A DNA stretch of 64,000 bases from a virus. Lineage: Duplodnaviria; Caudoviricetes. The translations under genes were made by a program, and so were the position numbers. The DNA lies in the IMG/VR virus record IMGVR_UViG_3300038679_000357, positions 191,143 to 255,142 of that record; one strand, 5' to 3'. Shown here piece by piece: positions 274-61,917 of this stretch. The notes under the pieces were generated by a model. That model was not told the DNA's origin, searched no databases, and saw only the letters and a program-made list of their open reading frames with translations. The first letter of the stretch is position 1. The number at the start of each line of letters is the position of its first letter.

Positions 274-933
274 TTAATCGCAGAGTCCGCATTCCGCCCC
301 GAAGCCAGCAAGTTCTTTTTCATTCATTTCTTCACCATCCTTCGGGGATGGCTTTCCGGTCTTGCACTTACTACACTCATTTTCCGGCTCACTTTCCTTA
401 ACGAGTTGATTTCCATCATCAACAACAAGTCCAGGAATGTCAACCGATGCATAGATAGAAGTCAAATCAGGATTTTTTACAGCGATCTCTTCGAGCATGA
501 CAATATCCTCGACCGATACACCAGTCGCCAGAGAGATGGAGGCAGTTTTTCTTGGTGAAAGAGTGTTACCAGCCATAACTACTGGAGAAACCATACAGAA
601 CGCCTTTCCAATAGCTTGTTCTTTAGTTGCCTCAGACTTAAAGTCTGTTGTACTTCCTGGATTGCGCTCCTCTTCCAAGCGACGCTCTGTAGAAAACTCT
701 TCTGGACGAGGGAGAGAAGTTCTCATTTTTTCATCTCGACGCATCGGGTGTCCACCGTCATTGCTTTCCGTGTCGAGCTTTCTTTCTTCTCCAAGTTTGG
801 CATTTCCATACCACTCCATGCGCTCATCAACAGAAACCTCAACGTCTTCATCCTTAACAACAGAAACCTCGCCATCACGATTCACTCTGTCGATGCCAAC
901 TTCATTATGATTTCTGACTGCAAAGATTTTCAT
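274..933 (-). CDS. Hypothetical phage protein with C-terminal Cys cluster (CSKC...CGLC)
   Basis: 219-aa ORF in the minus-strand operon, 2 nt from the upstream TAG; contains an RKTAS motif. Confidence 0.7.
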   Translation of the reverse strand: MKIFAVRNHNEVGIDRVNRDGEVSVVKDEDVEVSVDERMEWYGNAKLGEERKLDTESNDGGHPMRRDEKMRTSLPRPEEFSTERRLEEERNPGSTTDFKSEATKEQAIGKAFCMVSPVVMAGNTLSPRKTASISLATGVSVEDIVMLEEIAVKNPDLTSIYASVDIPGLVVDDGNQLVKESEPENECSKCKTGKPSPKDGEEMNEKELAGFGAECGLCD

Positions 934-935
934 AT

Positions 936-1190
936 CTATGTTCCTTTTTCTTTCTCAACGTACTGTTCAACGCCGATTGCATTTGCGATGATCCCAAGCA
1001 TCACCTCGCACACCTTCGACACGCTCTCATAACTGTCAGAAACTATCACTTCAGTGACGGCATCCTTAATGTCTTCAGTGATGTCATGTCCGCAAATACC
1101 GGCAGCAGTAACAATTTTCCACAAAAATGCTTCAGGATCTTTCTTTACCTCTTGATATAAATCATATCCATTAACAAAAAAATTACCCAC
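936..1190 (-). CDS. Hypothetical phage protein
   Basis: 84-aa ORF tightly coupled to both neighbours (1-2 nt gaps). Confidence 0.7.
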   Translation of the reverse strand: MGNFFVNGYDLYQEVKKDPEAFLWKIVTAAGICGHDITEDIKDAVTEVIVSDSYESVSKVCEVMLGIIANAIGVEQYVEKEKGT

Positions 1191-1191
1191 G

Positions 1192-2157
1192 TCATGACCC
1201 CATAGCTTTCTTCAAACTTTCATAAAACAAATCAGAAACCTTATTTGGAACGCTGGAAGTTTGCGCATCCCACGATCTTCCATCCTCTCTTGGTCGTCTT
1301 ATCGCATTCAATCTTGCTTCATTTTCCTTGCGAATGGCATTAGATGTATCAAGTCTTGACTCATTTTCTTTCTGACTTTCTCCAGGCATAATAGACAGTT
1401 GTCCAATAGGTGGTGTCCAATGACGATTCGTATCATCTCCACCGTATCCGCCAATACCAGTTTTTGGAAGAGAAGCAGTATCGACACCTGCGGTTGTTTC
1501 AGTCTCCCACGCCTCCTTATCAAACGAAATAGACTTTTTCCTTAACTCAGACTCAGAAGAAATGAGATCTTTTGTCGATGGAGTATTGTCATTTATTCCA
1601 GAAACATCCGGCGACACTACAGAAGCCTCTCCAACCCTTGGCTTCATATTAGGAGAAACATTATAATCATCGCCACCACGCACGGACCGGACCGAAGACA
1701 ACATTGACGGAGATTCAGAAAGAGTTTTATGACGAATTGCCGATGCACTATCCCACGACTTATTATTAACGAATGATTCTGGATCAGCAAATCCTTTTTT
1801 CACCACATCGACCATCTCTCTCGACTCAACTTTCTTTGGCGTGTCGATAGACACCTTTTCTACAGACTTGGCGATAGATGGATCGGTTGCTTGTATCTTT
1901 GCAGACGGCAGACCAACAATTTCAGCCATCTCCTTTATTTTCGAAACAGAATCTGCATCCATTCTGGCATCATAATAAAAATTACCACCAGACACAGCAG
2001 CCTTCTGAATCCCTTCCATAACTGACAGTTCATTGGAATCATCAATTTTTCCTGGAGCAGACGCACGCTGCGGGACATCTTTTCCAACCACAGACTGCAT
2101 CATCCACGATGGGATCTCATTATTTCCGTTTTTACTTATAATCATGATAATCTCCAA
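1192..2157 (-). CDS. Hypothetical phage protein, low-complexity Ser/Asp/Glu-rich (head/scaffold-like)
   Basis: 321-aa ORF with GGAG SD upstream; follows a terminator/promoter junction. Confidence 0.7.
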   Translation of the reverse strand: MEIIMIISKNGNNEIPSWMMQSVVGKDVPQRASAPGKIDDSNELSVMEGIQKAAVSGGNFYYDARMDADSVSKIKEMAEIVGLPSAKIQATDPSIAKSVEKVSIDTPKKVESREMVDVVKKGFADPESFVNNKSWDSASAIRHKTLSESPSMLSSVRSVRGGDDYNVSPNMKPRVGEASVVSPDVSGINDNTPSTKDLISSESELRKKSISFDKEAWETETTAGVDTASLPKTGIGGYGGDDTNRHWTPPIGQLSIMPGESQKENESRLDTSNAIRKENEARLNAIRRPREDGRSWDAQTSSVPNKVSDLFYESLKKAMGS

Positions 2158-2197
2158 TAATCCATCTATTCAAACGAAACGCACAATCATCCTATGC

Positions 2198-2209
2198 ATT
2201 GTACAACAA
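2198..2209 (-). promoter_or_regulatory. Extended -10-like motif TTGTTGTACAAT
   Basis: Intergenic and sense-oriented upstream of 2157. The same motif recurs at 22298-22309 (-), 58331-58342 (+) and 63524-63535 (+). Confidence 0.45.
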
Positions 2210-2240
2210 AAAGCCCGGCCCGCACTTGACGGACCGGGCT
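2208..2240 (-). terminator. Rho-independent terminator
   Basis: The minus strand reads GAGCCCGGTCCG-TCAAGTG-CGGGCCGGGC-TTTTTG: a GC hairpin plus U-tract just after the stop of 2260..2913. Confidence 0.8.
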
Positions 2241-2259: not shown

Positions 2260-2913
2260 TTAAGCCTTAAAATCCTTAATCATCAGCTTGACGTACTCGG
2301 GATCATATCCAAGCATCTCGGTCCAATAAGCTTGAACCTGTTTCTTGGTGTCGCCAGACAAAGCGGCAACCCTTACGAAAGTACGCTTATCGCTGGCTAC
2401 GATAAGAGCATCCTCTTCGCTGTCGTCTTCATCTTCAACATCACCAACTGTCTCGGAAGAAAGACCTTCACCCTCTGTCTCGCTGTCTTCAGAAACGTCG
2501 GTCTCGTCGGAAACATCCTCAACCTCGATTTCAACTTCGTCGACTTCCTCAGTCGGAACGTCGCCACTGGCGAGATCGGCAACGTCTTTAACGTCATCTG
2601 CGACATCCTGCAACTTTTCCTGCACGGCAGCAACATCATCGACGACGTCGGCAACACGAGCGGCAAGATCACCACCCTCAGACGGAAGAGACTCATCTTC
2701 CACGGTTCCGGGAATATCGACTGTCGTTTCTTCAGACACGTCAACGGTAGATTCCGGAGAAGTGCCGACTTCAGTTTCCTCAACGTCAACCGTTACAGGA
2801 GCTGCAAAGCCCTTCAATTGCTCGTCGGTGATGGCATCGACTCCGACAAGCTCGTCCTGAGAACGCTTTTCGAACCAATCCATGCGCTTTCCACCGGCTG
2901 ATAGAATAATCAT
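2260..2913 (-). CDS. Highly acidic phage protein (scaffold/internal-head-like)
   Basis: D/E-rich ORF. A strong GGAGGT SD precedes ATG at 2913, so this start is preferred over the track start 2997. Contains an MDWFEK leader and an RVAA motif. Confidence 0.75.
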   Translation of the reverse strand: MIILSAGGKRMDWFEKRSQDELVGVDAITDEQLKGFAAPVTVDVEETEVGTSPESTVDVSEETTVDIPGTVEDESLPSEGGDLAARVADVVDDVAAVQEKLQDVADDVKDVADLASGDVPTEEVDEVEIEVEDVSDETDVSEDSETEGEGLSSETVGDVEDEDDSEEDALIVASDKRTFVRVAALSGDTKKQVQAYWTEMLGYDPEYVKLMIKDFKA

Positions 2914-23818: not shown

Positions 23819-24288
23819 TACGTCTTTTTCTTCCCCAAGGCAAAACGCATTTTGCCTATTTTTTCACTATCAGCCAAAATCTGTCCATATGGCTTGTGTA
23901 CGCGCTTGGACTCAAAGGCGTTTTCTTCATTCAAAACGATCGTTTTTATTACTTGTTTTGCACGCTGAGTAAACTTAACTTTTCTAGTATCTTCACCAAC
24001 AACTAATCCAAGCGTCTTCAGTCTCAATACATCACTATTCGACACGGTATCCGGAAGATCCAGCGTATCGCCCATCGACTCTCCGCTCTCTCTCCATACG
24101 CGAAACAAAAGAGAAGCCTCACTATCGCTTAACTTTATATTCTTTTTGGCGGCATCACTTTTTATAATGCCACCGAGAATAGATACATCAATTCCAGAAT
24201 GAATGTCTTCTGGGGAAGAGGGAGTCTCAGCTTGTTGACGTGCAGGATAACCAATTGGAATGATCGGTGATGGCATATTATTCCTCAA
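23818..24288 (-). CDS. Hypothetical protein (possible winged-helix segment)
   Basis: 156-aa coupled ORF; VLRLKTLGLV...VKFTQRAK. Confidence 0.6.
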   Translation of the reverse strand: MRNNMPSPIIPIGYPARQQAETPSSPEDIHSGIDVSILGGIIKSDAAKKNIKLSDSEASLLFRVWRESGESMGDTLDLPDTVSNSDVLRLKTLGLVVGEDTRKVKFTQRAKQVIKTIVLNEENAFESKRVHKPYGQILADSEKIGKMRFALGKKKT

Positions 24289-26641
24289 ACAATTCGGGAT
24301 TCTCGTCTTTCGCCTTTCTCCAGATATCTTTCAAGCCGGAAAGGTTATACTCCTCCAACATCGACTCTCCATTATCATACCTGGATATTTTCACGTACTC
24401 ATAAGCCAACCGCAACTGAGTAATATTTCCTGTGAAAACACTACCAGAATGTTCTAACATAGCCTCCATAAGCTCTGGAACGATCGTATATCCTCGAAGA
24501 GCCATAATAATAGCTCTAGTAATGATCAATGGATTTCTTGGGATGATTTCTCCAGGTTGGAATATAGTTTTCACAACCTTTGACTTGGCATCCTCAATCC
24601 CCATGCCAGTGATATCGTATATCTTCCCCTTAACAAAATCATAAAGTAGACTATTAGCCGTAAAATCACGAGCATATATGTCGTAGTTTAATGACGTGAC
24701 CTGCACTCCATTTTTTCTCATAAGGTCACGAACATCAACGGGAACAAAATTTCCGCGAAAATCCATTTTCATCCCGTCATAAGAAAAGCTCATCGTCATT
24801 GTTCTTAATAGAACACTCATATCAGTGGCATTTAACTCTTCGGCAAGAAGTCCACCCATTTTTAAACATTCTGTTGGATTTCCAGAGGTAAAATCGATAT
24901 CGTTAACTTCCCTATAATCACCACTGCCAATCATTGTCCTTGGCAATCCACCAACCGCATACACAGAGTTTATCCCGTGCTCGCGACAAACCGTCTTGGC
25001 AACCGTTAAAATATATGAGATCTGGTCAGAAATGCGTGCTGAAGTTCCCATAATCTCATCCACGGAATCTGAATCACCTATAATGATTGCCTTTTCCATA
25101 TTGATAATTGCTTTTTCATCTACATGAGGTGAAACAAGCCATATAGCATCATGATCTCCATGCTCAAACTTGTAAACCCTCATATCGGAACAAGCTCGCT
25201 CTATGGCGTCAGACATATACGAAAAGCAATACATTCTCACTGCCGGGCGCTTTCCAGACTTTACCTGAAACTTGTAGAAGCCTATTTTTCTCATGGACTC
25301 AAGGATGATGTTTTTTGTTTTATCATCAGCCTCTATTGCTGCAGCCTTCCTCCATGGACCGGTAACAATATCCTCACGATATAGAGAACTCCATGTCATT
25401 GGATTGTTATTACAGTAATCAATCATTGTAAAGTTCACGTCATACTGATATGACATACGACCAAAACGATCGGTTTGATAACTGACATTTTCCGGACGAT
25501 ATCGTTTATGCCAATAAGGATCTTCACCTTCTTTGTAGTCAATCCTATCTACAATATCTCGACCATCCATTACGCGAGGAATTGCCTCGTCAATTGCGTA
25601 AAACGGTCCACCAATATTTGGTCCACCAAGGTTAGAGTTGATTCCAGCAGTTTTTCGTACTGGTCGTATGATCGGACGAGGTCTGGCATTTTCCAATAAC
25701 TCCTGTAAGGTCATCCTCTTAACCTCGTCGTCGGTGTAATCGGCAGACAATCCATCAGCCACAGAAAAATCAGGCGGAAGAGGCTTATGATGGTTTTTTT
25801 GTAATATCGTCTCCATACTGTCATTAGGCTTCTTATCAACAGGGAAAAACATGTTGTCAAAATCACTAAAAGATTGCAGCATTGCCTCTGGAAGAACAGC
25901 GTCCAAAAATGGAACGATTTGAGCCTTCTTTATCGGCATCTTAGACGAAGCATTATATATTTCACTACCCATTTCAAATGGAATGCGACCTTGTGACTTT
26001 CTTGTGGAGTTCAGTTCGCCTATTTTTTCATTTGTCCACTTTTTTTGTGCCTGAATTGGAGCAGACTCGTCTTTTGCTCCAAGAGCGTGAACCGACTCAT
26101 GAACAATCGTAGATCCCAAATGAAGAGCCACGAGAAGGTCAAAATCAGATTGATCCAGTGGTTTATATTCACTTCCAGATATCTGCTTGGATAAATCCTG
26201 AAAATTCTTTTTCGCAATATCGAGAATCTTAGCAGCATTTATTCCGATAACAAGACCACCTTTCAAGTCAAGATTACCATACATCTTATCCATTTCGTCA
26301 CGAACCTGATCTGGGTTTTTATCATCAGACCAAGCATACAGGCTACCATTTTCATAGCGAACACTGTACCCCATCTTTTTAAGTTCAGCCTCAACAATTT
26401 TGACTTTAACGGATCGATCTATGTTTGGATCAAAAACTCCAAAAGCACCAGACTCAGAAGAATTATATATATAAGCAATATTGGTTAAATTTCCGCCAAA
26501 CGACGAACTTCTCACCATATCGAGAGCTGTCCCAGCCTGTGATAAAACAGAGGCAATTTCGCCAATATCAACTTTTGATGGCGAACCTATGTTTCCTTCG
26601 ATAGAAGGTACGATCCTATCTATTTCACCGGGCTGATACAT
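24278..26641 (-). CDS. Multidomain protein: HExxH (zincin-like) region plus C-terminal class II nucleotidyltransferase (CCA-adding/poly(A) polymerase family)
   Basis: HESVH at 26087-26101; VYAVGGLPRT...NDIDF, MDFR, ARDFTANSLLYD, KIYDITG.GIED, and RNPLIITRAI in the motif D position. Confidence 0.8.
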   Translation of the reverse strand: MYQPGEIDRIVPSIEGNIGSPSKVDIGEIASVLSQAGTALDMVRSSSFGGNLTNIAYIYNSSESGAFGVFDPNIDRSVKVKIVEAELKKMGYSVRYENGSLYAWSDDKNPDQVRDEMDKMYGNLDLKGGLVIGINAAKILDIAKKNFQDLSKQISGSEYKPLDQSDFDLLVALHLGSTIVHESVHALGAKDESAPIQAQKKWTNEKIGELNSTRKSQGRIPFEMGSEIYNASSKMPIKKAQIVPFLDAVLPEAMLQSFSDFDNMFFPVDKKPNDSMETILQKNHHKPLPPDFSVADGLSADYTDDEVKRMTLQELLENARPRPIIRPVRKTAGINSNLGGPNIGGPFYAIDEAIPRVMDGRDIVDRIDYKEGEDPYWHKRYRPENVSYQTDRFGRMSYQYDVNFTMIDYCNNNPMTWSSLYREDIVTGPWRKAAAIEADDKTKNIILESMRKIGFYKFQVKSGKRPAVRMYCFSYMSDAIERACSDMRVYKFEHGDHDAIWLVSPHVDEKAIINMEKAIIIGDSDSVDEIMGTSARISDQISYILTVAKTVCREHGINSVYAVGGLPRTMIGSGDYREVNDIDFTSGNPTECLKMGGLLAEELNATDMSVLLRTMTMSFSYDGMKMDFRGNFVPVDVRDLMRKNGVQVTSLNYDIYARDFTANSLLYDFVKGKIYDITGMGIEDAKSKVVKTIFQPGEIIPRNPLIITRAIIMALRGYTIVPELMEAMLEHSGSVFTGNITQLRLAYEYVKISRYDNGESMLEEYNLSGLKDIWRKAKDENPELFEE

Positions 26642-27230
26642 CTTTTACTCTTGTTGGAGTTTTAGTTGGTGTCGCAGAAGGAGATTCTTTTTCCTCATCT
26701 TTTTCTTTCTTTTTTACACCAAGAGAAAAATCATTATTGACGAGATTTGCTCCAGTAGGAACGTCAATATCAACGTATTCAATATCAGCAGCACTCCTGC
26801 CTTCATCACTAGTTTCTTGCGGAGGTTCGTTTAGCACCAAATCTTCATCATCTTCTTCAACCGTATATACATCTTTATGCGATTCAAGCCAATCACTTAA
26901 TACCTTGGTCTCCTTTACGTCAAGAGCAGAGATTGTTTCCCATCCAGACCCCAAAGATTTACCTACATTTTTATCAACCATTTCCGTAAAAAATGAAAAA
27001 TCTCCAAGCTCAGATATATGTTTTCCGTCTGGACTTTGATGATCAATTATCATTTTCTTTTCTTCTTTATCTACCAAAAACTTAGTAAGATATTCTACCG
27101 ATATGACAACGGTATTTCCACCAGAATCATCGCCGCCAGAATTATCGTCACTAGACTGGGAAATCTTGACTGGTCTTTTAACAGAAATTAGTTTCCACCT
27201 ATCATTTTCCAAAACTTCATACAGTCTCAT
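26625..27230 (-). CDS. Hypothetical acidic protein
   Basis: 201-aa ORF with overlapping start/stop. Confidence 0.65.
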   Translation of the reverse strand: MRLYEVLENDRWKLISVKRPVKISQSSDDNSGGDDSGGNTVVISVEYLTKFLVDKEEKKMIIDHQSPDGKHISELGDFSFFTEMVDKNVGKSLGSGWETISALDVKETKVLSDWLESHKDVYTVEEDDEDLVLNEPPQETSDEGRSAADIEYVDIDVPTGANLVNNDFSLGVKKKEKDEEKESPSATPTKTPTRVKDVSAR

Positions 27231-28248
27231 GTTTCATCTCCGTCATTAATTGATTCACATATTCAGAAGGAATAGCGGCATTTAACCCATAATTTCCAGT
27301 TGGCTGAACAATCATAGCTGCCACGCCAATAACAACGCCATCCAACACATCAATTATCGGACCGCCAGAACTACCAGGATATACCGCTAAATCGACAAAG
27401 AAATACGACCCCACACTGTCAGTGCCAACACTTCTTCCGATAGATGAGATCATCCCTCTTGAAACATTATTGTCATAGCCATACGGACTTCCTACGCATA
27501 AAATATCAGCACCAGTTTTCATCGCGGAAATCCCCTTCATACCAAGATAGGTGTGTTTTACTGTCTCACACGACATCAACGCCAGATCACGATCGTAATC
27601 TACTTCAATTGGTATAACACGATGACGTCGACCAGATTCAACAAGATAACATGAGACTGACTTAGGATCTTCCTGCCTGCGACTTATTACATGAGCACAT
27701 GTGACAAACAATGTTTCGTCTATAGCAAAACATGATCCGATTTCCATCTTACCATATTTCGACGATTCGCATTCCATTTTGAAGCAAGCCGACATAACGT
27801 CGGCAATCACCGGAATAATATCTTGTTTTTCTCCAGAAGAAGCCTGCCGATCAGGTTTCCTACCACGCCTAGTCATCATAATGTATCTTTTTTTAGACCA
27901 GTCTTTCATTACCTTTTCGTAATCTGAGTCGGGGTAAACATGTTCTTTGTGTTCTACATCAAGAACAATTATCTCAGTTGAATAATTAATGTCTCGATCA
28001 CCACTCTCGATTTCAGTTTCATTTCTGAAAAAACCACCGACAGCGTGAGACACTCCATCCGGCTCTACTCCAATGAATTTATGGTCTCCCCCCATATTGG
28101 AGTCAAAGGTGGTCCGTTCCTTATCCCCAGGTCCACCGCCATACCAAGGAGATTGTTTTGACTTGTCGGTGACAGGAGACAACCCACCATCGAACGGCAT
28201 TGTTGTTCGATGAGCTGCTATTTTATCGGTTATCTTCCTGATTTTCAT
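27217..28248 (-). CDS. Trypsin-like (S1/HtrA-type) serine protease with N-terminal extension, no PDZ
   Basis: Intact triad TCAHV / DRDLAL / YPGSSGGP. Confidence 0.85.
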   Translation of the reverse strand: MKIRKITDKIAAHRTTMPFDGGLSPVTDKSKQSPWYGGGPGDKERTTFDSNMGGDHKFIGVEPDGVSHAVGGFFRNETEIESGDRDINYSTEIIVLDVEHKEHVYPDSDYEKVMKDWSKKRYIMMTRRGRKPDRQASSGEKQDIIPVIADVMSACFKMECESSKYGKMEIGSCFAIDETLFVTCAHVISRRQEDPKSVSCYLVESGRRHRVIPIEVDYDRDLALMSCETVKHTYLGMKGISAMKTGADILCVGSPYGYDNNVSRGMISSIGRSVGTDSVGSYFFVDLAVYPGSSGGPIIDVLDGVVIGVAAMIVQPTGNYGLNAAIPSEYVNQLMTEMKHETV

Positions 28249-28640: not shown

Positions 28641-29036
28641 CTACTTTTTACCATTCGCTGGCTTATATTTTCCAGGTTCTTTTCGATCTGCATCAAGAGG
28701 ATGAACTTTCGGAGCTTCTCCACTAGCCGCCGTGCGATGAGCCTTTCCAAAAACAGGCTTTTCATCGTCAAGACGCTTTTCAACGAGAGCATCCCTCGTG
28801 CCTTCACGAAGTTTTTCAAGCTGCTTTTCAGTAGTAACGTTAGCACCACCAGTGCGGTCAGACTCAAGTCCTTTTTCGGTGATACTTTGTTTTCCTGATG
28901 ATGGAGCATTCTCCCTCAACATGTTTTCAAGAGACTTCACTTTTTCCTCGCGCTTTTTAGCTGCTTCAACATGTCTTGCATTGTACATTTTATGTTCTCC
29001 TACGTTATCGAACATTATACATCGGATCTCGCCCAT
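28641..29036 (-). CDS. Hypothetical charged protein with short (T/V)EKxL repeats (scaffold-like)
   Basis: ITEKGL / TTEKQL / LVEKRL and an HRTAAS motif; directly downstream of terL. Confidence 0.6.
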   Translation of the reverse strand: MGEIRCIMFDNVGEHKMYNARHVEAAKKREEKVKSLENMLRENAPSSGKQSITEKGLESDRTGGANVTTEKQLEKLREGTRDALVEKRLDDEKPVFGKAHRTAASGEAPKVHPLDADRKEPGKYKPANGKK

Positions 29037-30835: not shown

Positions 30836-32191
30836 TTATTCCATGAAGATTTCTACATCATCATCGGTCATCCATACATCTGTAATGAGACCGTTGTCCA
30901 TCTCTATCCTTACCGGAAATTCAACATACGTGTTATAAAATTCCATCCTATCTTGGTCAATTTTACCAGCCATCCCTTCATATTCTGACCCTGGTTTAAT
31001 GACCTTAACCAAGGACGCCCCCTTTAATCTCTCAACATTGTCTTTAATTACATCATTTATTTCTTGCTGATATGAGGCAATTTTCGTAACTGGATCTGTA
31101 ATTTTCACAGTATAACTTGATGATTTTGTTTCTTTTCCGCCAACAGCAGAAAATGTCACCACCTTTCTCGTCTTTCCATCGCCAGAAATGGCGTCAAAGC
31201 TATCTGGTCCCTTAGACATCATCTTAGATGACAATAAGATAATATCATCGACGTCAAGGGGTTGCATATGACCAACCGCCAACAATGACGGAATCATCAC
31301 ATCCATATAGTGAGAATAGCTAAACGGAGACGTTTCACGACACTTTGTAATACCACGGAAAAGCGCGTTTTCTCCAACGTGAACAACAACTCTTTTATCG
31401 TCGGAAATAACATGAACATCATATCCCGTCATCGACGGAATCATGCCGAGTATTTTAGGATCGGTCATCCCTATTGCACCACAAGCCCGGTCTACATAAA
31501 AAGAGGCAAGCTCAGGAAGAAAATCAATATTTTTTGTGTTTGACGTCTTAATAAAACCAATCCACCCAGCCGCCTTTGGCGTTTCAAATTGCATCGGTTC
31601 AGATTTTTCGGTAGTATTTTCAGACTGCATCCAGCGTTTATAATTGCTCGAAATGTATTGAAGGATATCCTGCATTTGCGATTTTAGTTCCTTCAACTTT
31701 ACAAGATTATCATTATTTTTGTCGTCACCTACATCTTTTTCAACTTCCTTGATCATCATATCCATTTCTCCGCCATCCTTGGCATAAGTATCAACATATG
31801 ATTTCAAGGCTGGGACCGTACGATCTCTATTGTTGAATGACTCATTTTCTTCGTCGGAAGCAATTTCTTTTAGTTTTCCACTGCAATAATCTATAATCGA
31901 CTTGTACTTTGATACAATGTTAGCATGGATCATGTTCATGTTATCCATGGCATCGTAAGCAATCCTATTGCGAAAAAGAAAATCAACTGCTGATACAGCG
32001 GCAAGTTCACGGCTAGAATACACACCTCCATCAGATAACCCATACCGCCTAGAGTCAAACGCAACTTTTCCAGAAGCGTTTCTTATTCTAAACCAATACT
32101 GGTTATCTCGACAAGAGATATCAACTAGGTCGTAATACTGCATAAATCCTTCACCTTTTTGAACGAATCGGCTCCAAATAGACTTATACAA
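30836..32191 (-). CDS. Hypothetical protein (real start probably MQYYD); possible internal head protein
   Basis: 451-aa ORF immediately upstream of terL; contains IKTS and KIAS motifs. Confidence 0.65.
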   Translation of the reverse strand: MYKSIWSRFVQKGEGFMQYYDLVDISCRDNQYWFRIRNASGKVAFDSRRYGLSDGGVYSSRELAAVSAVDFLFRNRIAYDAMDNMNMIHANIVSKYKSIIDYCSGKLKEIASDEENESFNNRDRTVPALKSYVDTYAKDGGEMDMMIKEVEKDVGDDKNNDNLVKLKELKSQMQDILQYISSNYKRWMQSENTTEKSEPMQFETPKAAGWIGFIKTSNTKNIDFLPELASFYVDRACGAIGMTDPKILGMIPSMTGYDVHVISDDKRVVVHVGENALFRGITKCRETSPFSYSHYMDVMIPSLLAVGHMQPLDVDDIILLSSKMMSKGPDSFDAISGDGKTRKVVTFSAVGGKETKSSSYTVKITDPVTKIASYQQEINDVIKDNVERLKGASLVKVIKPGSEYEGMAGKIDQDRMEFYNTYVEFPVRIEMDNGLITDVWMTDDDVEIFME

Positions 32192-39890: not shown

Positions 39891-40208
39891 TCAGTTGATC
39901 AGATCCTTTAGGGTAATGATGTTACCCTTCAGTTTCTGAACCTCTGAAATTATTGAGTCTACAAGTGTTTGATCACCGGCTTTCACCCGCTTCAGGGTGA
40001 AAGCCATATTATCAATACTGTTCATAGCTTCAATAAATGGGGTTGGCTCGTCTTGATTAACAAGATTATTACCGAGATCTTCGACAGGAGTCTGTTTCTG
40101 TGGCTCTACGGCTGCAATCGGTTGAGGAGCCATAACTGTACCTGTCTGAGCTGTTTTGATCGCCCTGGCGATGTTCTTGGATAAAATTTCGTCAAAAGAG
40201 CTTTTCAT
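39891..40208 (-). CDS. Hypothetical protein
   Basis: 105 aa with a 4-bp overlap with the upstream gene; AIKTAQ motif. Confidence 0.65.
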   Translation of the reverse strand: MKSSFDEILSKNIARAIKTAQTGTVMAPQPIAAVEPQKQTPVEDLGNNLVNQDEPTPFIEAMNSIDNMAFTLKRVKAGDQTLVDSIISEVQKLKGNIITLKDLIN

Positions 40209-50131: not shown

Positions 50132-50713
50132 TCAGGGCGGCGTGGTATTCTTGATGTAAGTGAGCGTGATCACTTCTCCCGAACGGGGAGCCGGAACGTC
50201 TGCGTGTAGTGTTACGCTCCTTTTGTTCGCAGACTCGATAAAATCTGCCGGAGGTAATGTTTGCCCGTTCAGGATGACGGCGATCTTCGCTGTCACGTAC
50301 CTCTGCCCAGCCGGTAGTGTCCACGTCTTGTTGACTCCGTCCGTAGGCTCCACTGGATAGACGTTGATTTCCGCAGAACCGCTTCCGGTTATTATGGAGA
50401 GTAAGTAGGCAACGGTTTCATCTAGCTCAGCATGAGTAACTTCTTCCCCTTTATGAGAATAATTGTACTCCAAGACCTTCAGTAGTCCACGATTGATTGC
50501 AGAGTCGATGTTTTTTAAGTAGCGCCAATGATCAGCAACTTCGACAATCTGTCCGGGCTTCAGAGTTAGGCGGAATACCTCCTCTTCTCCCTGTAACGAT
50601 TCCTGGCTGCTGATATCAAGTCTTCCTGATGTATGTTGGGCCAGCAACCTCATGCCCGGCACTCCTGTCGATATAAACGTTCGCTCCGATCTTGTCTTCG
50701 TCTTTGAACTCAA
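50132..50713 (-). CDS. Virion structural protein (likely start ATG 50653)
   Basis: PTDGVNKTWTLP...AVILNGQTL...VITLTY domain, typical of phage structural repeats; AGGAG SD before 50653. Confidence 0.6.
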   Translation of the reverse strand: MSSKTKTRSERTFISTGVPGMRLLAQHTSGRLDISSQESLQGEEEVFRLTLKPGQIVEVADHWRYLKNIDSAINRGLLKVLEYNYSHKGEEVTHAELDETVAYLLSIITGSGSAEINVYPVEPTDGVNKTWTLPAGQRYVTAKIAVILNGQTLPPADFIESANKRSVTLHADVPAPRSGEVITLTYIKNTTPP

Positions 50714-51314
50714 GATCTCCCTTGATGGAATCAGAGCATGATTTGAATTCCGGTCCGATATCGTTTACGCCTATTTTTCCGTCATAGTAGCGTTCTCGGA
50801 CTTTTTTTGCCTTTTTTACCATTTCATCGTAAGCTTCGGAGGCATCCTTTGCATTGTCTGGTAGGAAATAAACGTTACGCTTCATCATGAACCTACCGAG
50901 ATATCCTTCCCGGACGTAAGCACAGACAAGAAGTAATGATTTACCGTTTTTTGATATGGAGTCTTTCGACACATCAATAAATATATGTGAATCATCCACT
51001 CTCTTTGATGCTATTTTAATCGTCTCGTCTTTTGACCCTCGTCCGTCTTCTTCTGCTGCTGTTTTTTGAAGTTGAGACGCTGCAGCCAGGCGCTTTAGAA
51101 GTTCGCCGATATCAATATTTGCCACGACCCCCATCCCGGCGAGTGCCTCCGCAACTACTTTAAGAACATCTGATTGCCCAGACGAAGCTGTTTTGACTAG
51201 GCTGAGGTCAATAGAACCTATAACGTCCAATATGTGAGCCCCTTTTGCTATGTCGGTAATTTTATGCTTTTGTGATTCACCAAAAGCCCACCCATTGCTA
51301 TTTCCTATGATCAT
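50616..51314 (-). CDS. Hypothetical protein with three K-x-A motifs (candidate internal head protein)
   Basis: LVKTAS, LQKTAA and IKIAS. Confidence 0.65.
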   Translation of the reverse strand: MIIGNSNGWAFGESQKHKITDIAKGAHILDVIGSIDLSLVKTASSGQSDVLKVVAEALAGMGVVANIDIGELLKRLAAASQLQKTAAEEDGRGSKDETIKIASKRVDDSHIFIDVSKDSISKNGKSLLLVCAYVREGYLGRFMMKRNVYFLPDNAKDASEAYDEMVKKAKKVRERYYDGKIGVNDIGPEFKSCSDSIKGDLEFKDEDKIGANVYIDRSAGHEVAGPTYIRKT

Positions 51315-52153: not shown

Positions 52154-52164
52154 AGCTATTCACA

Positions 52165-52199
52165 AAAATAGCCCGCCCACCCTCTTGAGGGTGGGCGGG
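52165..52199 (-). terminator. Rho-independent terminator
   Basis: 13-bp inverted repeat CCCGCCCACCCTC-TT-GAGGGTGGGCGGG followed by TATTTTTG on the minus strand. Confidence 0.85.
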
Positions 52200-52218
52200 A
52201 TTGCAAAAAATGGAGTGA

Positions 52219-52503
52219 TCAAATTCCGTTGAATTCGATGAAACCACTGGAGTTCAAGTATTTAATCAATTCTGGAGTTGCTCTCGCTACAACTGCCGAA
52301 GTGATGATCAGCATATTTCCCTCAGCCTGTATTGTTGCTGGTCTGAATCCAGGCGATTCAAGAGTTATGTGCTCAAGATCACTGCGAGACATTTTAGAGA
52401 CGAGTGAACACATGTCAGAGACCGTCGAAGCGGGAGATCCACTTCGTAAGCAGACCTCCCACTCCATCTTAACGCTTAATCCTGCTGCGGAGTAGTATTT
52501 CAT
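52219..52503 (-). CDS. Hypothetical protein
   Basis: 94 aa with an ATGA overlap with the vWA gene. Confidence 0.55.
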   Translation of the reverse strand: MKYYSAAGLSVKMEWEVCLRSGSPASTVSDMCSLVSKMSRSDLEHITLESPGFRPATIQAEGNMLIITSAVVARATPELIKYLNSSGFIEFNGI

Positions 52504-55019: not shown

Positions 55020-55355
55020 CTATTCGATATCGCCTACCGGAATGTCTTTTTTGAACTTGTTTTCTGCTTCTTCGAGGTAGTCATAGTATTTTTCGTGTTC
55101 AGTAAGATGATCGAGAGAAATTTCTTCACGGATAGCTGGGTCATCGGAATGTTCTTTCTCGACTTCCATCCCTTTTTCTAGTTGCTCTTCAATTTGATCT
55201 GAAGAAACCTCATGTTTTTCAGCTATATCGTTCACATCCATTCCGTCGGCTTCTCCGCCGCGCAACTCGATCCAGTTATTTTCTTTACCGATCTGCTCCC
55301 ATTCTTTGCGAGTTATGGAGAGTGATGACGAATCCTTTGCGATAATAATTTTCAT
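55020..55355 (-). CDS. DUF5661-like protein with a conserved N-terminal leader
   Basis: GMEVEKEH.....EEISLDHLTEHEKYYDYL; leader MKIIIA...SITRKEWEQIGKENNW. Confidence 0.7.
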   Translation of the reverse strand: MKIIIAKDSSSLSITRKEWEQIGKENNWIELRGGEADGMDVNDIAEKHEVSSDQIEEQLEKGMEVEKEHSDDPAIREEISLDHLTEHEKYYDYLEEAENKFKKDIPVGDIE

Positions 55356-55449
55356 TTTTCACCCCTTTTTACTAATTATATGCCTTCTTCGTGTAGAAAA
55401 ATCCTTTTTTCGATGTATAATCAAGCAAACAAAAACCATAGAGAGAAAA

Positions 55450-57603
55450 ATGCATTCATTTAACGGTTTTTTATCATTTGAAAAGTCACCCCTTCCATAT
55501 GATGAAGGCGATAATGATCGTAATATTCCTATTATGGAGAGGATTCCAAAAAGAAAAGACAAATTAATGGAAATGGCGGCGTATCTAAAGACAAAATTTT
55601 TTGGCATTGATCAGCAAATAGATGAAGTCGTATCGATGATGTTTTCATGGTACACTGTCCCCGAAATAATGTTTAGACCAACTATTATTAATTTGTGGGG
55701 AGTGACAGGAGTTGGTAAAACTGATCTCGTTAGGAATATAGTTGATTTTCTTAATATGAATAATCATTATGCTGAGTTAAAGATGTCTAATCATAATGGA
55801 GATAGTGATTCTAGTTTTGAAAATAGACCATTCACGACGAAGCCGGGCGGATTGGAGCGAATGTTGAGAACTATTGATGATTATTGCGGAAGAGGAATTT
55901 TAATGCTGGATGAATTTCAAAGATTCCGCACTAAAACTGGCATGGGAGAAGAAGTAGATCATGGTTCGTATAGCGATATTTGGACATTGATGTCAGATGG
56001 TCGGTTTGCATCAAATCCTTCTGATGATTTCATAGAAGATTTATTTGATCGTCTTGAGAACCGCGATGAAGACGATCAAAATATCTTTACGTATAGTCAG
56101 AAAGACATGACTATAAAAAGATGGCGAGATAAATTTACTGAAACATGTCCATGGATCGACATTGATCGTTATTGTAGAGAGAAGAAATACGTGAATTCCA
56201 TGTATGCTGAATTCATTGTAGATGTTCTCCACGGCGAGAGTGGAGTCGATATACCTCATGATATTCATGATGTTAATGAAATAAATGATTTTTTAATTCA
56301 AGTGAGGTCAACGAAGGTATTTGAAAGAAAAAATGATTATTCAAAATTACTTATATTTGTTAGTGGAAACTTAGATGAGGCATTTCGATTTGCCACCTGT
56401 GTTGAGTCTTGTAATTATGACGCAGATAGCATTTACCGAATGTCTAAAAACGTAAACATTTTAGATATAAAAAAGGCGCTGTCAGAGCGTTTCTCTCCTG
56501 AACATATTTCAAGACTTGGAAACAATCACGTCATTTATCCGACATTGCATTCAGAAGCATTTCGCAAAATCATTTCAACGGAACTGAATAGAGTTTCAAA
56601 AATGATTTTTGAAAAATGCGGAATGATGTTTTTTTTCGATTACACTGTGGAAAATATGTTATATGAAAACGGTGTTTATCCAGTGCAGGGCGCGAGACCG
56701 GTGTTGACGACAATTGGATCATTTATCTCTATTGTCGTCCCAGACCTGGTTATTTCATTCGTGGAATTGGTTGGAGCACTGCCAGATAAAGACCTTATGG
56801 GCAGCCATGAAATATTGGTGTCGTATGAAAAAAATGTTATTACAGCCACATTAAATGGAATTAACAAAACATTCTCGTATGCCCCTCAATTATACGCATT
56901 AAAGAACGGCAAGAATGATTCTGACATTTTGTCCGTTATGTCCGTGCATGAAGCGGCACATTGCGTTTTGAGCGTTGTCGCCCAGGGGCAGTATCCTGAG
57001 TATATTTCAGTAACTCCAGATGGAAAGTCAGCCATTACGGTATGCGGTGGCAGCAGAGCATTTTTGAAGGCTAAAATAGCGCAGTGTGCTGTATCATTTG
57101 CAGGAGTAGCGGCTGAAAAAGCTGTTTTTGGTAAAAATTATGTAACCTCTGGCTCGGCGTCCGATATACATGATGCAACTTCAGTAGTGTGCGATGTCGT
57201 TAGAAGGTTTGGAATTATAGCTGGATTTCAAACGGCAGTAAAATCTGAATACAGCGATGATGCCGATGAGTTTGATACAGAGATATCAAAAACAAATGAA
57301 AAAGTGCAATCCATAATTAACATTATCTCAAGTTGGGTCGATTCAATAGTGCGAAACAATCTTACCCCTATAGTTATACTTGCTGCAGAAATAAAAAAAT
57401 CTGGCGGCATCGTACACCAAAAAAGAATAATTGAAGTTATTGGGGAATATGTCTCAGTTTACGTTAGAGAAAATAAATACAATACGTCATTCATGCTTGA
57501 TGAAGCTATTAAGTGCGTAAAGGGCGGCGAAGGGGATTTTATGAAGAAAGTCAATGAAATGAAAGATCCACTGGATGAGCTGGTGGGACAAATAATCGGT
57601 TAA
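55450..57603 (+). CDS. Clp/AAA_2-type ATPase fused to an M41 (FtsH-like) metallopeptidase domain, no TM segments
   Basis: WGVTGVGKT, LMLDEFQR, FSPEHISRLG, GARPV; then HEAAH, AGVAAEKAVFG, SGSASDI. Start 55450 is chosen because 55306 overlaps an opposite-strand gene and TGTATAAT lies at 55414-55421. Confidence 0.85.
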   Translation: MHSFNGFLSFEKSPLPYDEGDNDRNIPIMERIPKRKDKLMEMAAYLKTKFFGIDQQIDEVVSMMFSWYTVPEIMFRPTIINLWGVTGVGKTDLVRNIVDFLNMNNHYAELKMSNHNGDSDSSFENRPFTTKPGGLERMLRTIDDYCGRGILMLDEFQRFRTKTGMGEEVDHGSYSDIWTLMSDGRFASNPSDDFIEDLFDRLENRDEDDQNIFTYSQKDMTIKRWRDKFTETCPWIDIDRYCREKKYVNSMYAEFIVDVLHGESGVDIPHDIHDVNEINDFLIQVRSTKVFERKNDYSKLLIFVSGNLDEAFRFATCVESCNYDADSIYRMSKNVNILDIKKALSERFSPEHISRLGNNHVIYPTLHSEAFRKIISTELNRVSKMIFEKCGMMFFFDYTVENMLYENGVYPVQGARPVLTTIGSFISIVVPDLVISFVELVGALPDKDLMGSHEILVSYEKNVITATLNGINKTFSYAPQLYALKNGKNDSDILSVMSVHEAAHCVLSVVAQGQYPEYISVTPDGKSAITVCGGSRAFLKAKIAQCAVSFAGVAAEKAVFGKNYVTSGSASDIHDATSVVCDVVRRFGIIAGFQTAVKSEYSDDADEFDTEISKTNEKVQSIINIISSWVDSIVRNNLTPIVILAAEIKKSGGIVHQKRIIEVIGEYVSVYVRENKYNTSFMLDEAIKCVKGGEGDFMKKVNEMKDPLDELVGQIIG

Positions 57604-57605
57604 AA

Positions 57606-58313
57606 TTGAGAGATAAAATGGGCTGGAACGAGAAATTCATAAAGATGGCGGGTGTAATTGATCAAGTCGACGCAGCCGCTGGGCGTCCAATCACGAGGGA
57701 TTATTTACTAAACCTCATGAAAAATGACAAGAAAGGGTATGAGGAATTTATTCAATACGTAAAGAAAGTCGTCATGGAAAAAATAAGACATGGCGATGAG
57801 ACAATTGACAAAGCTATTCTTTCCAAAATGATCAAAGAGGTGGTTGCCAGGTTCTTAAATAGAACTGATGCAGATGTGGCGGCAGCCAAAATGGAAAAAG
57901 AACGAAAGATGGCTGAATTGGCTGAAAAAGCCAAGGCTAAGGAAAGAGAGAATCCATCCGCCCATCTCGACGATCATCAGGAGTATGTTCAATATGGGGA
58001 TAATGACATTAAAAAAATTCGAGATAAGTTTCCACAATTGCCAAAAGGTATTCCGATTGCTACTCCGCTGATTAAAAACCCAACAAGAGGATATCGAGGA
58101 CCGTCTACTCGGGAAAATGATCCGACAATCGTCCTTAAACGAAAGGCAAACAATGAAATATGCCTAAATCATCCAGCAAATGGCAAGCTATGTATGTGCG
58201 ACAATCGCATAGCCAGAGTATGTCAATGTATCGCTGACTCACGTGGAGGGGAGTGCGCTGTCGTTAGATATGTTGATAACGGCGAAATTGACATGGCCAT
58301 TCTTGATTGGTGA
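57606..58313 (+). CDS. Hypothetical protein with MGWNEK leader and Cys-rich C-terminus
   Basis: MGWNEKFIKMAG; C-x-C and C-Q-C clusters. Confidence 0.65.
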   Translation: MRDKMGWNEKFIKMAGVIDQVDAAAGRPITRDYLLNLMKNDKKGYEEFIQYVKKVVMEKIRHGDETIDKAILSKMIKEVVARFLNRTDADVAAAKMEKERKMAELAEKAKAKERENPSAHLDDHQEYVQYGDNDIKKIRDKFPQLPKGIPIATPLIKNPTRGYRGPSTRENDPTIVLKRKANNEICLNHPANGKLCMCDNRIARVCQCIADSRGGECAVVRYVDNGEIDMAILDW

Positions 58314-59956: not shown

Positions 59957-60110
59957 GTGCCTTCTCCATCGTTTTGCATGTGTTTTGTTCGGCCATCATT
60001 ATGTAGAAGAGTTTGATTCTTCGGCATGGAGCCGAAGAACAGGCGTCGTGAAATGTGAATTTTGTGGCAAGATCGGTAACTTAAAAACATACAACAGGAG
60101 AGCGTTATGA
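59940..60110 (+). CDS. Small Zn-ribbon protein (DUF1660-like), missed by the ORF track
   Basis: GTG start; MKNLIECLLHRFACVLFGHHY...VKCEFCGKIG...AL*; overlaps the upstream stop and has an ATGA overlap with 60107. Confidence 0.65.
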   Translation: MKNLIECLLHRFACVLFGHHYVEEFDSSAWSRRTGVVKCEFCGKIGNLKTYNRRAL

Positions 60111-60352
60111 ATGACGTGTCCATTAATTCGGAACAAGGAATTATCGCCAAAGAGATTATGCGCGTTCAGGAAGATGAAAAAAAGTTTTCCCTCGCTATGA
60201 CCTCGACTTTGAATGAGGAAAAACAAAATTATTGGAAGAAGCGCGTTCATGATGCCAGGCGGAAAATTGATCGCTTGCAGATGAAGCTGAAAGATGCTGT
60301 TTCTACGACACCGCATACATGCTCGTCTGACTGCTCTCTCCATAGCCATTAA
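60107..60352 (+). CDS. Small coiled-coil protein
   Basis: 81 aa with an AGGAG SD. Confidence 0.6.
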   Translation: MNDVSINSEQGIIAKEIMRVQEDEKKFSLAMTSTLNEEKQNYWKKRVHDARRKIDRLQMKLKDAVSTTPHTCSSDCSLHSH

Positions 60353-60388
60353 AACTGGCATCAGACGGCTCATTTCGGAGTTAATTTT

Positions 60389-60925
60389 ATGCGCAGCGAT
60401 AAGATTGAAAAAAAATCGTACGCCAGTCATGAACCAGTTTTAAAAATGGTGGTTAACTCCATTCGGAATGGCTCTGTTGTCGAGTTCGGGTGCGGGCTGT
60501 CAAGCACCCCTATGCTAAGAGAGCTGTGCCAGAAAATGAGCCGTCGTTTATTCTCATATGAGAGTAATGCATCGTGGCTGGATATCGCTCAAAAAATGTG
60601 TCCACCGAGCGAACTTCACAATTATGTTATAGTGCAGTCATGGACTAACTTTTCCCCAGGCGTTGAAACTTGCCCGATAGGCGTGGCGTTTGTTGATCAC
60701 GGAAGCGCTCATAGGCGTGGGCATAGCGTCAACATTTTGTTGGATATCGCAGAAGTGGTTATTTGTCACGATACAGAGCGCCCTTGTCATGATCGTCCTG
60801 GCGGATATGATCATGATATCATATCGGCTAAGTACAAACGAGATTACACTCACGTGAAGCCGTGGACTACGGTTTGTTCTAATGTCCATGACGTTAGAGC
60901 GTGGGGAGAGCCGGAGTGGTGTTAG
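60389..60925 (+). CDS. Class I SAM-methyltransferase-like protein (glycan-associated type)
   Basis: VVEFGCGLSST motif I, VAFVDHG, VICHDTE. Confidence 0.7.
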   Translation: MRSDKIEKKSYASHEPVLKMVVNSIRNGSVVEFGCGLSSTPMLRELCQKMSRRLFSYESNASWLDIAQKMCPPSELHNYVIVQSWTNFSPGVETCPIGVAFVDHGSAHRRGHSVNILLDIAEVVICHDTERPCHDRPGGYDHDIISAKYKRDYTHVKPWTTVCSNVHDVRAWGEPEWC

Positions 60926-61386
60926 CGATAGCTTCCGATTTCAACTTTGCTTGCTGAAAGAATTTGGGCTAAGGCAATGCATAGGCGATACGCATCTTCG
61001 GCAGTTTCTTTTGCATTACTTTCTGACGAGACGCCAGAGCATAATGTATTCAATCTCGTCCAAGCTCTCTGAAATTTTACAGATTCTTGCATTGGGCGCG
61101 ATGAGTCATCAGCCGAAAGCATTGGACGAAGAAGCTTTTTAACTTCTGATTTGGCTCTTGATAAAAGCCTTAGATCGTTATCGGTTACTCCATGTTGTCC
61201 AATATTTTCAGTTATTTTATCAAATAAAAAGGCGGCAGCATATATCCTATCGCTGATTGACCCCTGTTCAATAAGCGCTTCCCCCTCGGCGGTGGATGTC
61301 CACCCCATTGATACGCCTACTGAGTACCATTCCTTGAAAGATACTTCCAGGGTGGATTTTCCAGATGCTATTTTAATAATCATCAT
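60922..61386 (-). CDS. Hypothetical protein with the same N-terminal leader as 55020..55355
   Basis: MIIKIASGKSTLEVSFKEWYSVGVSMGW. Confidence 0.65.
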   Translation of the reverse strand: MMIIKIASGKSTLEVSFKEWYSVGVSMGWTSTAEGEALIEQGSISDRIYAAAFLFDKITENIGQHGVTDNDLRLLSRAKSEVKKLLRPMLSADDSSRPMQESVKFQRAWTRLNTLCSGVSSESNAKETAEDAYRLCIALAQILSASKVEIGSYR

Positions 61387-61452
61387 CTTCTCCAGTTCGT
61401 ATATGATATCGTTCGGGAAGAGATAGTGTGATTCCTTTGGAAGGATATACCG

Positions 61453-61917
61453 TTGAAAATATGGAATTCCACACGCATGGACTGGTTAACTAAACATTTT
61501 AATTTTTCCTTGCGAAGAATCGCTTCTGATCCGGCGTCGATTTTGTCAGGGTTGCGCGATCATTTAGCTTCTGCCGCAATGACTGTTTATGAATCATGGG
61601 AGCAAGATGAAGATGGTATTGATCCAATGCTTGGCGGCGGCGGAATTTGTGATGAGATTGCCAAGGAAATTGGTAACATTTTAGCTAGAAATGGATTTGA
61701 CATTGGAGATGGCGGGCAGGACGATCATGCATGGGTTGTTGCAGTCATGGATGGGCGTGCATTTTCTGTCGATATTCCATGTCGATTGTACGAAACTGGA
61801 GCTTGGTACTCTTGGACAAAAAAGAAAAATGTACAATTGACTGGTAAGGATGTCGAAATTCACGAAATCCCATACGAAGATGTTGCCGAGATCTTCAATT
61901 CAGACAACTACAACTGA
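61453..61917 (+). CDS. Cys-His-Asp (papain/transglutaminase-like) domain protein with MDWLTK leader
   Basis: GGICDEIA...DHAWVV...SVDIP. Confidence 0.5.
   Translation: MKIWNSTRMDWLTKHFNFSLRRIASDPASILSGLRDHLASAAMTVYESWEQDEDGIDPMLGGGGICDEIAKEIGNILARNGFDIGDGGQDDHAWVVAVMDGRAFSVDIPCRLYETGAWYSWTKKKNVQLTGKDVEIHEIPYEDVAEIFNSDNYN

Follow-up and report, generated by a model that had tools for sequence, protein, structure and literature searches.

The analysed stretch of DNA (64,000 nucleotides, G000:C1:191143-255142; hereafter the window) is the 64-kb end of one virus record of 255,142 bp, IMGVR_UViG_3300038679_000357, and belongs to a jumbo phage related to Bacillus phage G. It has a GC content of 40-44% and carries a long minus-strand gene array. 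The portal gene runs off its left edge, continuing to G000:C1:189109, and the head module has the gene order portal, 1443-amino-acid (aa) protein, protease-scaffold polyprotein, AAA+ protein, 167-aa protein and 288-aa Phage_capsid_4 protein; the same order was found in four related contigs. A reading made from the letters of the window (the sequence-only reading) had listed 17 tetrapeptides of the form [K/R]-x-A-[S/A/Q/G] in proteins that it took to be head-region or accessory ones, all 17 of which were present in the open reading frames (ORFs) to which they had been assigned, and had proposed them as the cleavage code of a prohead protease. Comparison with homologs makes it likely, in our judgement, that the motif is the predicted recognition and cleavage site of the prohead protease of this phage. 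The strongest evidence came from outside the window, and the closest analogy, which the sequence-only reading had missed, is the herpesvirus assemblin.

Homologs were collected from eight terminase loci, three head-module loci, three loci of a 232-aa protein and 80 portal loci covered by the portal alignment scan, as well as from two protein searches and one exhaustive HMMER search. When the 262 ORFs of the genome were ranked by motif excess, a 1622-aa ORF directly to the left of the window was far ahead of all others, with 21 motifs observed versus 6.7 expected:

G000:C1:179952-184820 (L001:8753-13621), minus strand: 1622-aa protease-scaffold polyprotein (P0001)

Within this protein the matches sharpened to [I/V]-[K/R]-[S/T/x]-A-S, which occurred approximately 14 times, mostly between recognisable segments. 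Its first 230 residues shared 34-42% identity with gp19 of phage G, gp97 of Myrna and the 'capsid maturation proteases' of actinophages. Over 120 polyprotein homologs (29-65% identical), [KR]-x-A-S was observed 1134 times versus 192 expected, an approximately 6-fold excess; Ser was 3.5 times over-represented after the motif Ala, and hydrophobic residues were favoured before the basic one. The site logo yielded the refined motif [L/M/I]-x-[K/R]-x-A-[S>Q>A>G/N], with Lys (0.75) and Arg (0.25) at the basic position. Judged by these alignments, phage G-like phages conserve the refined motif as a functional element, and the cut would probably fall between Ala (P1) and Ser/Gln (P1'), by analogy with herpesvirus enzymes.

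The arrangement of the sites along the polyprotein was also conserved. For eight of them, 44-59 of 60 aligned homologs had a site at the corresponding position. The first site was present in 120/120 homologs, its Ala at median position 28, and at least one site lay 10-80 aa past the protease core in 81/82. A site within the last 80 aa was found in 92% of the homologs, versus 28% of shuffled segments and 57% of random internal windows, leaving a predicted C-terminal tail with a median length of 44.5 aa. The protease was fused to approximately 1300 further residues in more than 100 homologs, and this part is a candidate scaffold because of its position, its repeats and a capsid protein that lacks a delta domain. 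The latter, the 288-aa Phage_capsid_4-like protein, is 72-86% conserved and contains no motif site. The sequence-only reading had suggested that a basic-x-Ala motif replaces a Glu-ending code in this lineage. In the 120 scaffold homologs, [KR]-x-A-[SAQGN] was found at 2.80 times expectation, versus 1.07, 0.99 and 0.80 times for the T4, phiKZ and SPN3US motifs. The comparative evidence for the replacement is strong, although no more than nine of the 17 sites on the list can be regarded as clearly real and the cleavage is a prediction. Inteins or homing endonucleases, identified from precomputed Pfam matches (Intein_splicing, LAGLIDADG_3 and Hint), interrupt many protease-scaffold homologs (P0003, P0010-P0017 and others) and some portals (L012, L014), extending the proteins to 2000-2600 aa.

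The first 300 residues of the polyprotein, modelled with AlphaFold2, showed a confident core at residues 33-232 (predicted local distance difference test, pLDDT, ~90), and the motif sites flanking it were all located in segments with pLDDT below 50. The core matched T4 gp21 (5jbl) with a Z score of 10.3 and a root-mean-square deviation of 2.3 Å over 123 residues, and the proteases of varicella-zoster virus, pseudorabies virus (PrV), herpes simplex virus (HSV) type 2 and human cytomegalovirus (HCMV) with Z scores of 8-9.8; the first 28 Foldseek matches all belonged to the assemblin/T4 gp21 fold class. Pfam, including Peptidase_S77, S78 and S21, gave no family for the protease at E <= 0.01, and a PDB sequence search with a 22-sequence profile returned no chain at E <= 1 and no detectable sequence similarity to the herpesvirus enzymes. 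Because the fold matches and neither a Pfam family nor a PDB sequence does, the modelled protease is best described as an unannotated branch of the prohead-protease fold, shared with phage G gp19. Its gene is part of the head module, where it lies between those for the portal and the major capsid protein. H92 (FFTNH), S143 (GVSMG) and H169 (P0001 numbering) were invariant in 22 sequences and are candidate catalytic His and Ser residues. The core also contains invariant C153, C156, C167, H169, C218 and C221, arranged as CxxC...CxH...CxxC, a set shared by gp19 of phage G and gp97 of Myrna. This Cys-rich insert is probably metal-binding, to judge from the residue pattern, and H169 may alternatively belong to such a Cys/His metal site. 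To our knowledge, T4 gp21 and the herpesvirus assemblins have no comparable insert. When the protease core was modelled in complex with the leader of the 232-aa protein, the prediction scored 0.10 (mark 0.32), a value that counts neither for nor against binding.

Two cultured phages, Bacillus phage G and Myrna, have proteases of the same clade. The 300-aa gp19 of phage G carries KIAG9 and KTAA43 before the core and KVAS248 and KIAS274 after it, and the leader of the phage G portal (gp14) carries KQAA18 and KMAS55, the latter in the same place as the portal site of the window. The motif extends across phage G gp4-gp13, gp4, gp7 and gp11 being several-fold enriched, and is absent from the capsid protein gp27. 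Pfam and PHROG scans left nearly all of the approximately 60 window proteins without a family match, and the tail and replication control sets were therefore taken from annotated phage G genes. In the phage G head module, 36 motifs were observed versus 13 expected (P 1e-7), and in the replication genes 15 versus 11.8. Myrna gp97 (1211 aa, L019 record 46700-50335) contained 13 motifs versus 5.6 expected, with a C-terminal cluster. Although annotated as 'tape measure', this protein has an N-terminal prohead-protease domain and is encoded in the interval from the portal region to the major head protein; it most likely represents a fusion of protease and scaffold. Literature searches covering the phage G genome and tail papers, the SPN3US papers and Myrna gave no cleavage-site data for this clade, and no published cleavage specificity was found for phage G gp19 or Myrna gp97.

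Within the window, alignment of homologs divided the 17 listed sites into nine that were supported, three that were partly supported, three that were not conserved and two without homologs. The recurrence claimed by the sequence-only reading was accordingly upheld at nine sites that form conserved islands and in part at three more; it failed at three, and the bare count in the window was barely above chance. The supported sites, with one further site absent from the list, and the genes that carry them are as follows:

3..323, minus strand: N-terminus of the portal, first 107 codons of a 785-aa gene; hypervariable leader
33..44, minus strand: RQAG, portal residues 94-97; supported, predicted N-terminal leader removal
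2362..2373, minus strand: RVAA, residues 209-212 of an acidic 245-aa protein (2260-2997); supported
24278..26641, minus strand: 787-aa protein with a C-terminal nucleotidyltransferase (PolyA_pol head) domain; predicted substrate with three sites
25340..25351, minus strand: RKAA, residues 431-434 of the 787-aa protein; supported
25919..25930, minus strand: KKAQ, residues 238-241 of the 787-aa protein; supported
27217..28248, minus strand: 343-aa trypsin-like serine protease (GSSGGP) behind an N-terminal leader; Trypsin_2 domain protein
27838..27849, minus strand: RQAS, residues 134-137, between the leader and the trypsin domain; supported
31073..31084, minus strand: KIAS, residues 370-373 of a 451-aa protein (30836-32191); supported, two homologs only
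31565..31576, minus strand: KAAG, residues 206-209 of the 451-aa protein; absent from the list, supported by turnover
50616..51314, minus strand: 232-aa protein with a disordered leader of ~92 aa, followed by a folded domain (95-205)
51006..51017, minus strand: KIAS, residues 100-103 of the 232-aa protein; supported as conserved, start of the folded domain
51054..51065, minus strand: KTAA, residues 84-87 of the 232-aa protein; supported
51183..51194, minus strand: KTAS, residues 41-44 of the 232-aa protein; supported, in a variable low-confidence loop

At the supported sites, the K/R and Ala columns reached a conservation of 0.8-1.0, with flanks at or below the mean of each protein. The sites fell at leader ends or domain boundaries in the models and alignments, in line with the location given by the sequence-only reading. 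In the portal, a motif was located 14-21 aa ahead of the conserved core in 54/62 distinct homologs (41-77% identical), versus 12% of shuffles, and 26 different tetrapeptides were used at this place; portal homologs carry DUF559 at the C-terminus, and a single-protein locus scan for the portal in viral contigs gave no match. RVAA lies at the junction of an Asp/Glu-rich region and the conserved C-terminal 35 aa, its [KR]-x-A core being kept in 7/7 homologs and the full motif in 4/7. The 787-aa protein matched PF01743 and the PHROG tRNA nucleotidyltransferase family, and has syntenic homologs in seven large terminase (TerL) loci. In these, K[KRTYS]AQ occupied the place of KKAQ238 in 7/7 (24-37% identity), with K and A columns of 1.00 and flanks of 0.40. 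RFA[SGA] was found at RKAA431 in 6/7, and this site had the highest score in the genome outside the scaffold according to a position weight matrix (PWM) trained on the scaffold family only. The trypsin-like protein (PF13365 Trypsin_2, E 2e-21, residues 171-309) adjoins TerL in 8/8 loci and has R[VIF]AQ or KQAQ at RQAS134 in 8/8 homologs; it is predicted to be a packaged zymogen. For the 451-aa protein, the two homologs (48-52% identical) had RSAS and KKAS at KIAS370, and both had KTAS a few residues away from KAAG206, in the same variable linker ahead of a conserved block.

The 232-aa protein, from a 17-member family, is the clearest predicted substrate in the window. Its AlphaFold2 model had pLDDT values of 36-51 at residues 1-92 and of 75-92 at residues 95-205. 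K[TQRS]A[SG] was found at KTAS41 and [KR][IM]AS at KIAS100, each in 16/16 homologs, and the full motif was kept at KTAA84 in 12/16, with K and A invariant. A fold match for the C-terminal domain was also sought; the best, 9vel_r (a capsid-associated chain of SPO1), reached a Z score of 6.8 and was tied with unrelated folds, and no assignment was made. No match for the 232-aa protein was found in the records behind the TerL loci, contigs that are only 12-26% complete.

The remaining listed sites showed weaker conservation or none:

25643..25654, minus strand: KTAG, residues 330-333 of the 787-aa protein; partly supported, indel-rich linker
28213..28224, minus strand: KIAA, residues 9-12 of the trypsin-like protein; partly supported
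57642..57653, plus strand: KMAG, residues 13-16 of a 235-aa protein (57606-58313); weakly supported
538..552, minus strand: RKTAS in a 219-aa protein (274-933); not supported, chance match
28725..28736, minus strand: RTAA, residues 101-104 of a 131-aa protein (28641-29036); not supported
40146..40157, minus strand: KTAQ, residues 18-21 of a 105-aa protein (39891-40208); not supported
61363..61374, minus strand: KIAS, residues 5-8 of a 154-aa protein (60922-61386); without homolog
61516..61527, plus strand: RIAS, residues 22-25 of a 154-aa protein (61453-61917); without homolog

Near KTAG330, RTAS, KKAS, KTAN or KNAQ occurred in approximately 4/7 homologs, and in 1/7 by a strict test of ±4 alignment columns. 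At KIAA9, the full motif was present in 2/8 homologs and K-x-A in approximately 5/8, and the counterpart of KMAG13 was KLAS in a single homolog (42% identical). RKTAS was kept in 1/16 homologs. The relatives of the 219-aa protein have an N-terminal MK-KTAG and a K[YF]A[SGAQ] near residue 190; the protein of this genome has MKIFAV and SIYAS at these places, and both family-level sites appear degenerate. RTAA101 was found in 0/4 homologs at its position, with KFAN nearby in three. A TEKQLEK repeat of the TerL-adjacent 131-aa protein also occurs in the middle of the protease-scaffold polyprotein; homologs of the 131-aa protein from related loci are 331-548 aa long, and this copy may be truncated or a scaffold-like fragment. 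KTAQ18 had a high PWM score, and its only true homolog (36% identical) has RTSQ, with Ala lost. Single-protein locus scans in viral contigs gave no match for the proteins at 60922-61386 and 61453-61917 or for an FtsH-like protein of the window, and metagenome contigs scanned for the 61453-61917 protein gave none either.

A separate N-terminal feature was observed in seven otherwise unrelated proteins, which open with M-[D/G/S]-W-x-x-[K/R] (e.g. MDWLEKYA, MDWLTKHF, MGWNEKFIKMAG and MDWLDRYAQ). They are encoded in the window regions 2883, 52129, 57594, 61477 and 62189 and by ORFs at approximately -31447 and -28829 relative to the window start. In several of them a K/R-x-A motif follows directly or within 15 residues, and the start could represent a short propeptide or address tag at the N-terminus that extends to a cut site.

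The positional conservation of the motif was compared with that of 555 decoys of the same shape. The mean was 0.39 for the motif (0.37 without the scaffold family) versus 0.14 ± 0.07 for the decoys, of which 0.2% reached the conservation of the motif (0.5% with the scaffold family excluded). The test is conservative, because the portal site scored zero through a gap offset.

Taken alone, the numbers obtained for the bare pattern would lead to dismissal of the motif. In the window, [KR]-x-A-[SAQG] was observed 42 times versus 30 expected from per-protein shuffles (p ~0.02), a count that 3% of random motifs of the same shape match or better, and its density, 2.0 per 1000 aa, was lower than in the remainder of the genome (2.45). 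The listed proteins contained 23 motifs versus 6.5 expected, a circular comparison in which motif presence was the selection criterion, and the 55 unlisted window proteins contained 19 versus 23. The related patterns [KR]-x-A-[LIVM] and [KR]-x-L-[SAQG] were likewise approximately 1.25-fold above expectation genome-wide, and the scaffold-trained PWM had a single-genome false-discovery rate of ~0.7, so that it is not usable alone for substrate prediction; its three best matches outside the scaffold were validated window sites. These figures, together with the lack of conservation of RKTAS, RTAA and KTAQ, would suit a functionless by-product of composition and helix preferences (Lys, Ala and Ser) plus selection by the reader. 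Such an origin is nevertheless opposed by the 6-fold enrichment over the 120 polyprotein homologs, by conservation far above that of the decoys and by the portal site, retained in 54 of 62 homologs with varying tetrapeptides within a hypervariable leader. Moreover, the enrichment is confined to the head module in two distant phages. In this genome, the head module contained 43 motifs versus 22 expected, the TerL block 13 versus 4.3 and the region 50616-54923 10 versus 3.7; the block 3060-23818 contained 3 versus 7.6 and the other 184 proteins 110 versus 101. An excess over shuffled sequence was observed in the scaffold family and the head module but hardly in the window as a whole, and not in its unlisted proteins. 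As an account of the motif, chance is scarcely credible and is largely refuted for the core sites; it best accounts for the three sites that are not conserved and possibly for the two without homologs.

If the motif is functional, it need not be cut by the prohead protease. It might serve as a docking or capsid-targeting signal that is bound without being cut (possible partners are the scaffold, the portal and the large AAA+ protein encoded in the head module), and its conservation would then reflect recruitment into the procapsid rather than proteolysis. Conservation and enrichment in the head module and in N-terminal leaders do not by themselves prove cleavage, one conserved site of the 232-aa protein lies at the edge of a folded domain, and the separate M-D/G-W-x-x-K leader of several window proteins could be a real address tag. 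Docking would not, however, predict that the sites bracket the protease core (120/120 before it, 81/82 after it) and recur near the C-terminus in 92% of the homologs, which is the autoprocessing layout of assemblin-type polyproteins; nor would it predict multiple sites in disordered linkers between domains, or Ala followed by Ser, the residues that occupy P1 and P1' in sites of the structurally related herpesvirus enzymes. We consider docking unlikely. Cleavage after Lys/Arg by the trypsin-like protease (27217-28248), with no part for the prohead protease, appears more improbable still. It would account for the obligatory Lys/Arg, for the Trypsin_2 protein beside TerL in all eight related loci and for a motif upstream of its own catalytic domain, as in a self-activating zymogen. 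Phage G, however, carries the motif at corresponding positions of its protease, portal and head module and has no Trypsin_2 domain, either in a search that found the family in 13/14 control genomes or in a direct protein search; furthermore, Ala and Ser/Gln are as conserved as the basic residue, which an enzyme with Lys/Arg at P1 would not need. Two other candidates were discarded: the A-x-A sites of signal peptidase need a signal peptide, none of which is evident, and a nucleotide-level signal is at odds with tetrapeptides that vary freely in sequence.

Cleavage by the prohead protease remains the reading that we favour, and several observations weigh against it. Cleavage is deduced from comparison, and no proteomic or N-terminal sequencing data for the clade were found in the literature; the presence of the window proteins in the virion is likewise a prediction. 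Aligned homologous sites are not independent events, and part of their conservation is inheritance. The motif is loose and carries little information, as the false-discovery rate of the PWM indicates, and three of the 17 listed sites (RKTAS, RTAA and KTAQ) are chance matches. KIAS100 is located on the first strand of the folded domain in the AlphaFold2 model, not in a linker. In phage G, the tail and baseplate genes were mildly enriched as well (13 observed versus 7.2 expected). The residue at P3 is basic, not the Val/Leu/Ile of herpesviruses, whose consensus [VLI]-x-A-[ST] was not enriched in the scaffold family (1.16 times expectation), and the scissile bond is placed by analogy only. Finally, the catalytic His and Ser are putative, being assigned from their invariance in the 22 aligned sequences.

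According to the proposed mechanism, the protease would act inside the procapsid as the N-terminal domain (~200 aa, assemblin fold) of the 1622-aa polyprotein, and would free itself by cuts in the disordered linkers on either side of its core. The scaffold part would be cut into pieces, with removal of a C-terminal tail of ~45 residues in a step equivalent to the herpesvirus M-site cut, and the variable N-terminal leader of the portal would be trimmed. In cargo proteins encoded in the window, leaders would be removed or domains separated; the predicted set comprises the trypsin-like protease, the 787-aa nucleotidyltransferase-like protein, the 232-aa, 451-aa and acidic 245-aa proteins and perhaps the 235-aa protein. 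No cut is predicted for the 288-aa capsid protein, which has neither a site nor a delta domain.

In herpesviruses, assemblin is the N-terminal part of a protease-scaffold fusion and cuts after Ala at a release (R) site past the protease and a maturation (M) site close to the C-terminus, so that the scaffold is freed from the capsid protein (PMC4498786). The system described here resembles that of HSV and PrV UL26 and HCMV UL80 (MEROPS S21) in having an N-terminal protease in a long putative assembly polyprotein, predicted sites behind the core (R-like) and a few dozen residues from the C-terminus (M-like), Ala followed by Ser at the site, and a capsid protein that is itself predicted to be no substrate. 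It differs in the Lys/Arg located two residues before the Ala and the Leu/Met/Ile two further back, where herpesviruses have Val, Leu or Ile at P3; in at least eight conserved polyprotein sites, N-terminal sites and many other predicted substrates, including the portal and enzymes; and in the Cys-rich, probably metal-binding insert in the protease core. Among phages, the T4-, phiKZ- and SPN3US-type proteases process many head proteins, typically removing N-terminal propeptides in which several sites are possible, and recognise L/I-x-E (T4), S/A/G-x-E (phiKZ) and A-x-E (SPN3US) (PMC10052503). The present enzyme is, like T4 gp21 (MEROPS S77), phiKZ gp175 and SPN3US gp245, a phage prohead protease of the same fold, with 5jbl as its best match, and here too one short motif would serve for processing of the protease itself, of scaffold and portal and of numerous internal head proteins. 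Those enzymes, however, cut after Glu, whereas the conserved motif here ends in Ala-Ser/Gln, and the capsid proteins of T4 and SPN3US are cut, while that of this phage has no site. We know of no characterised prohead-protease code of the T4/phiKZ type that does not end in Glu. Phage G gp19 differs from the polyprotein in being a stand-alone protease that is not fused to a 1300-aa scaffold part.

The other features identified in the window were:

18835-19473: methyltransferase-like protein
29053-30834: large terminase (TerL)
55306-57603, plus strand: Peptidase_M41 (FtsH-type) 765-aa soluble protein
62204-63031: weak GNAT match

The block 3060-23818 gave only one weak tail-fibre match in the Pfam and PHROG scans, and the window contained no tRNA genes. 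The Peptidase_M41 gene is conserved opposite a DUF5661 gene and a gene for a VWA-domain protein in related contigs (L015, L017); its product is a second phage-encoded protease. A megablast of the whole window against phage records gave no match, and there is thus no close DNA relative among the deposited phages. The proteins P0001, P0121 and P0138, identical to those of this phage, are listed for a contig 340,706 bp long, and in view of these the 255-kb record may be an incomplete version of the genome.

No paper describing this Lys/Arg-x-Ala specificity was found. If the prediction is true, it defines a new specificity for the phage G clade, which shares the P1-P1' pair and the polyprotein layout with herpesvirus assemblin, and complements the known structural relationship of tailed phages and herpesviruses with a functional one. 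It is directly testable, as phage G and Myrna are both cultured and mass-spectrometry data for the phage G virion exist. The motif together with its conservation predicts processed, probably packaged proteins of uncultivated giant phages. A further and more tentative proposal, which we put forward as possible rather than probable, is that phage G-like megaphages, and probably Myrna-like actinophages, keep a herpesvirus-style self-processing system and at the same time use K/R-x-Ala|Ser as an address-and-release label for cargo. Enzymes, including the trypsin-like zymogen and the nucleotidyltransferase-like protein, would then enter the capsid in an inactive precursor form and be released on cleavage, and the repertoire of injected proteins of uncultivated giant phages would be readable from sequence.

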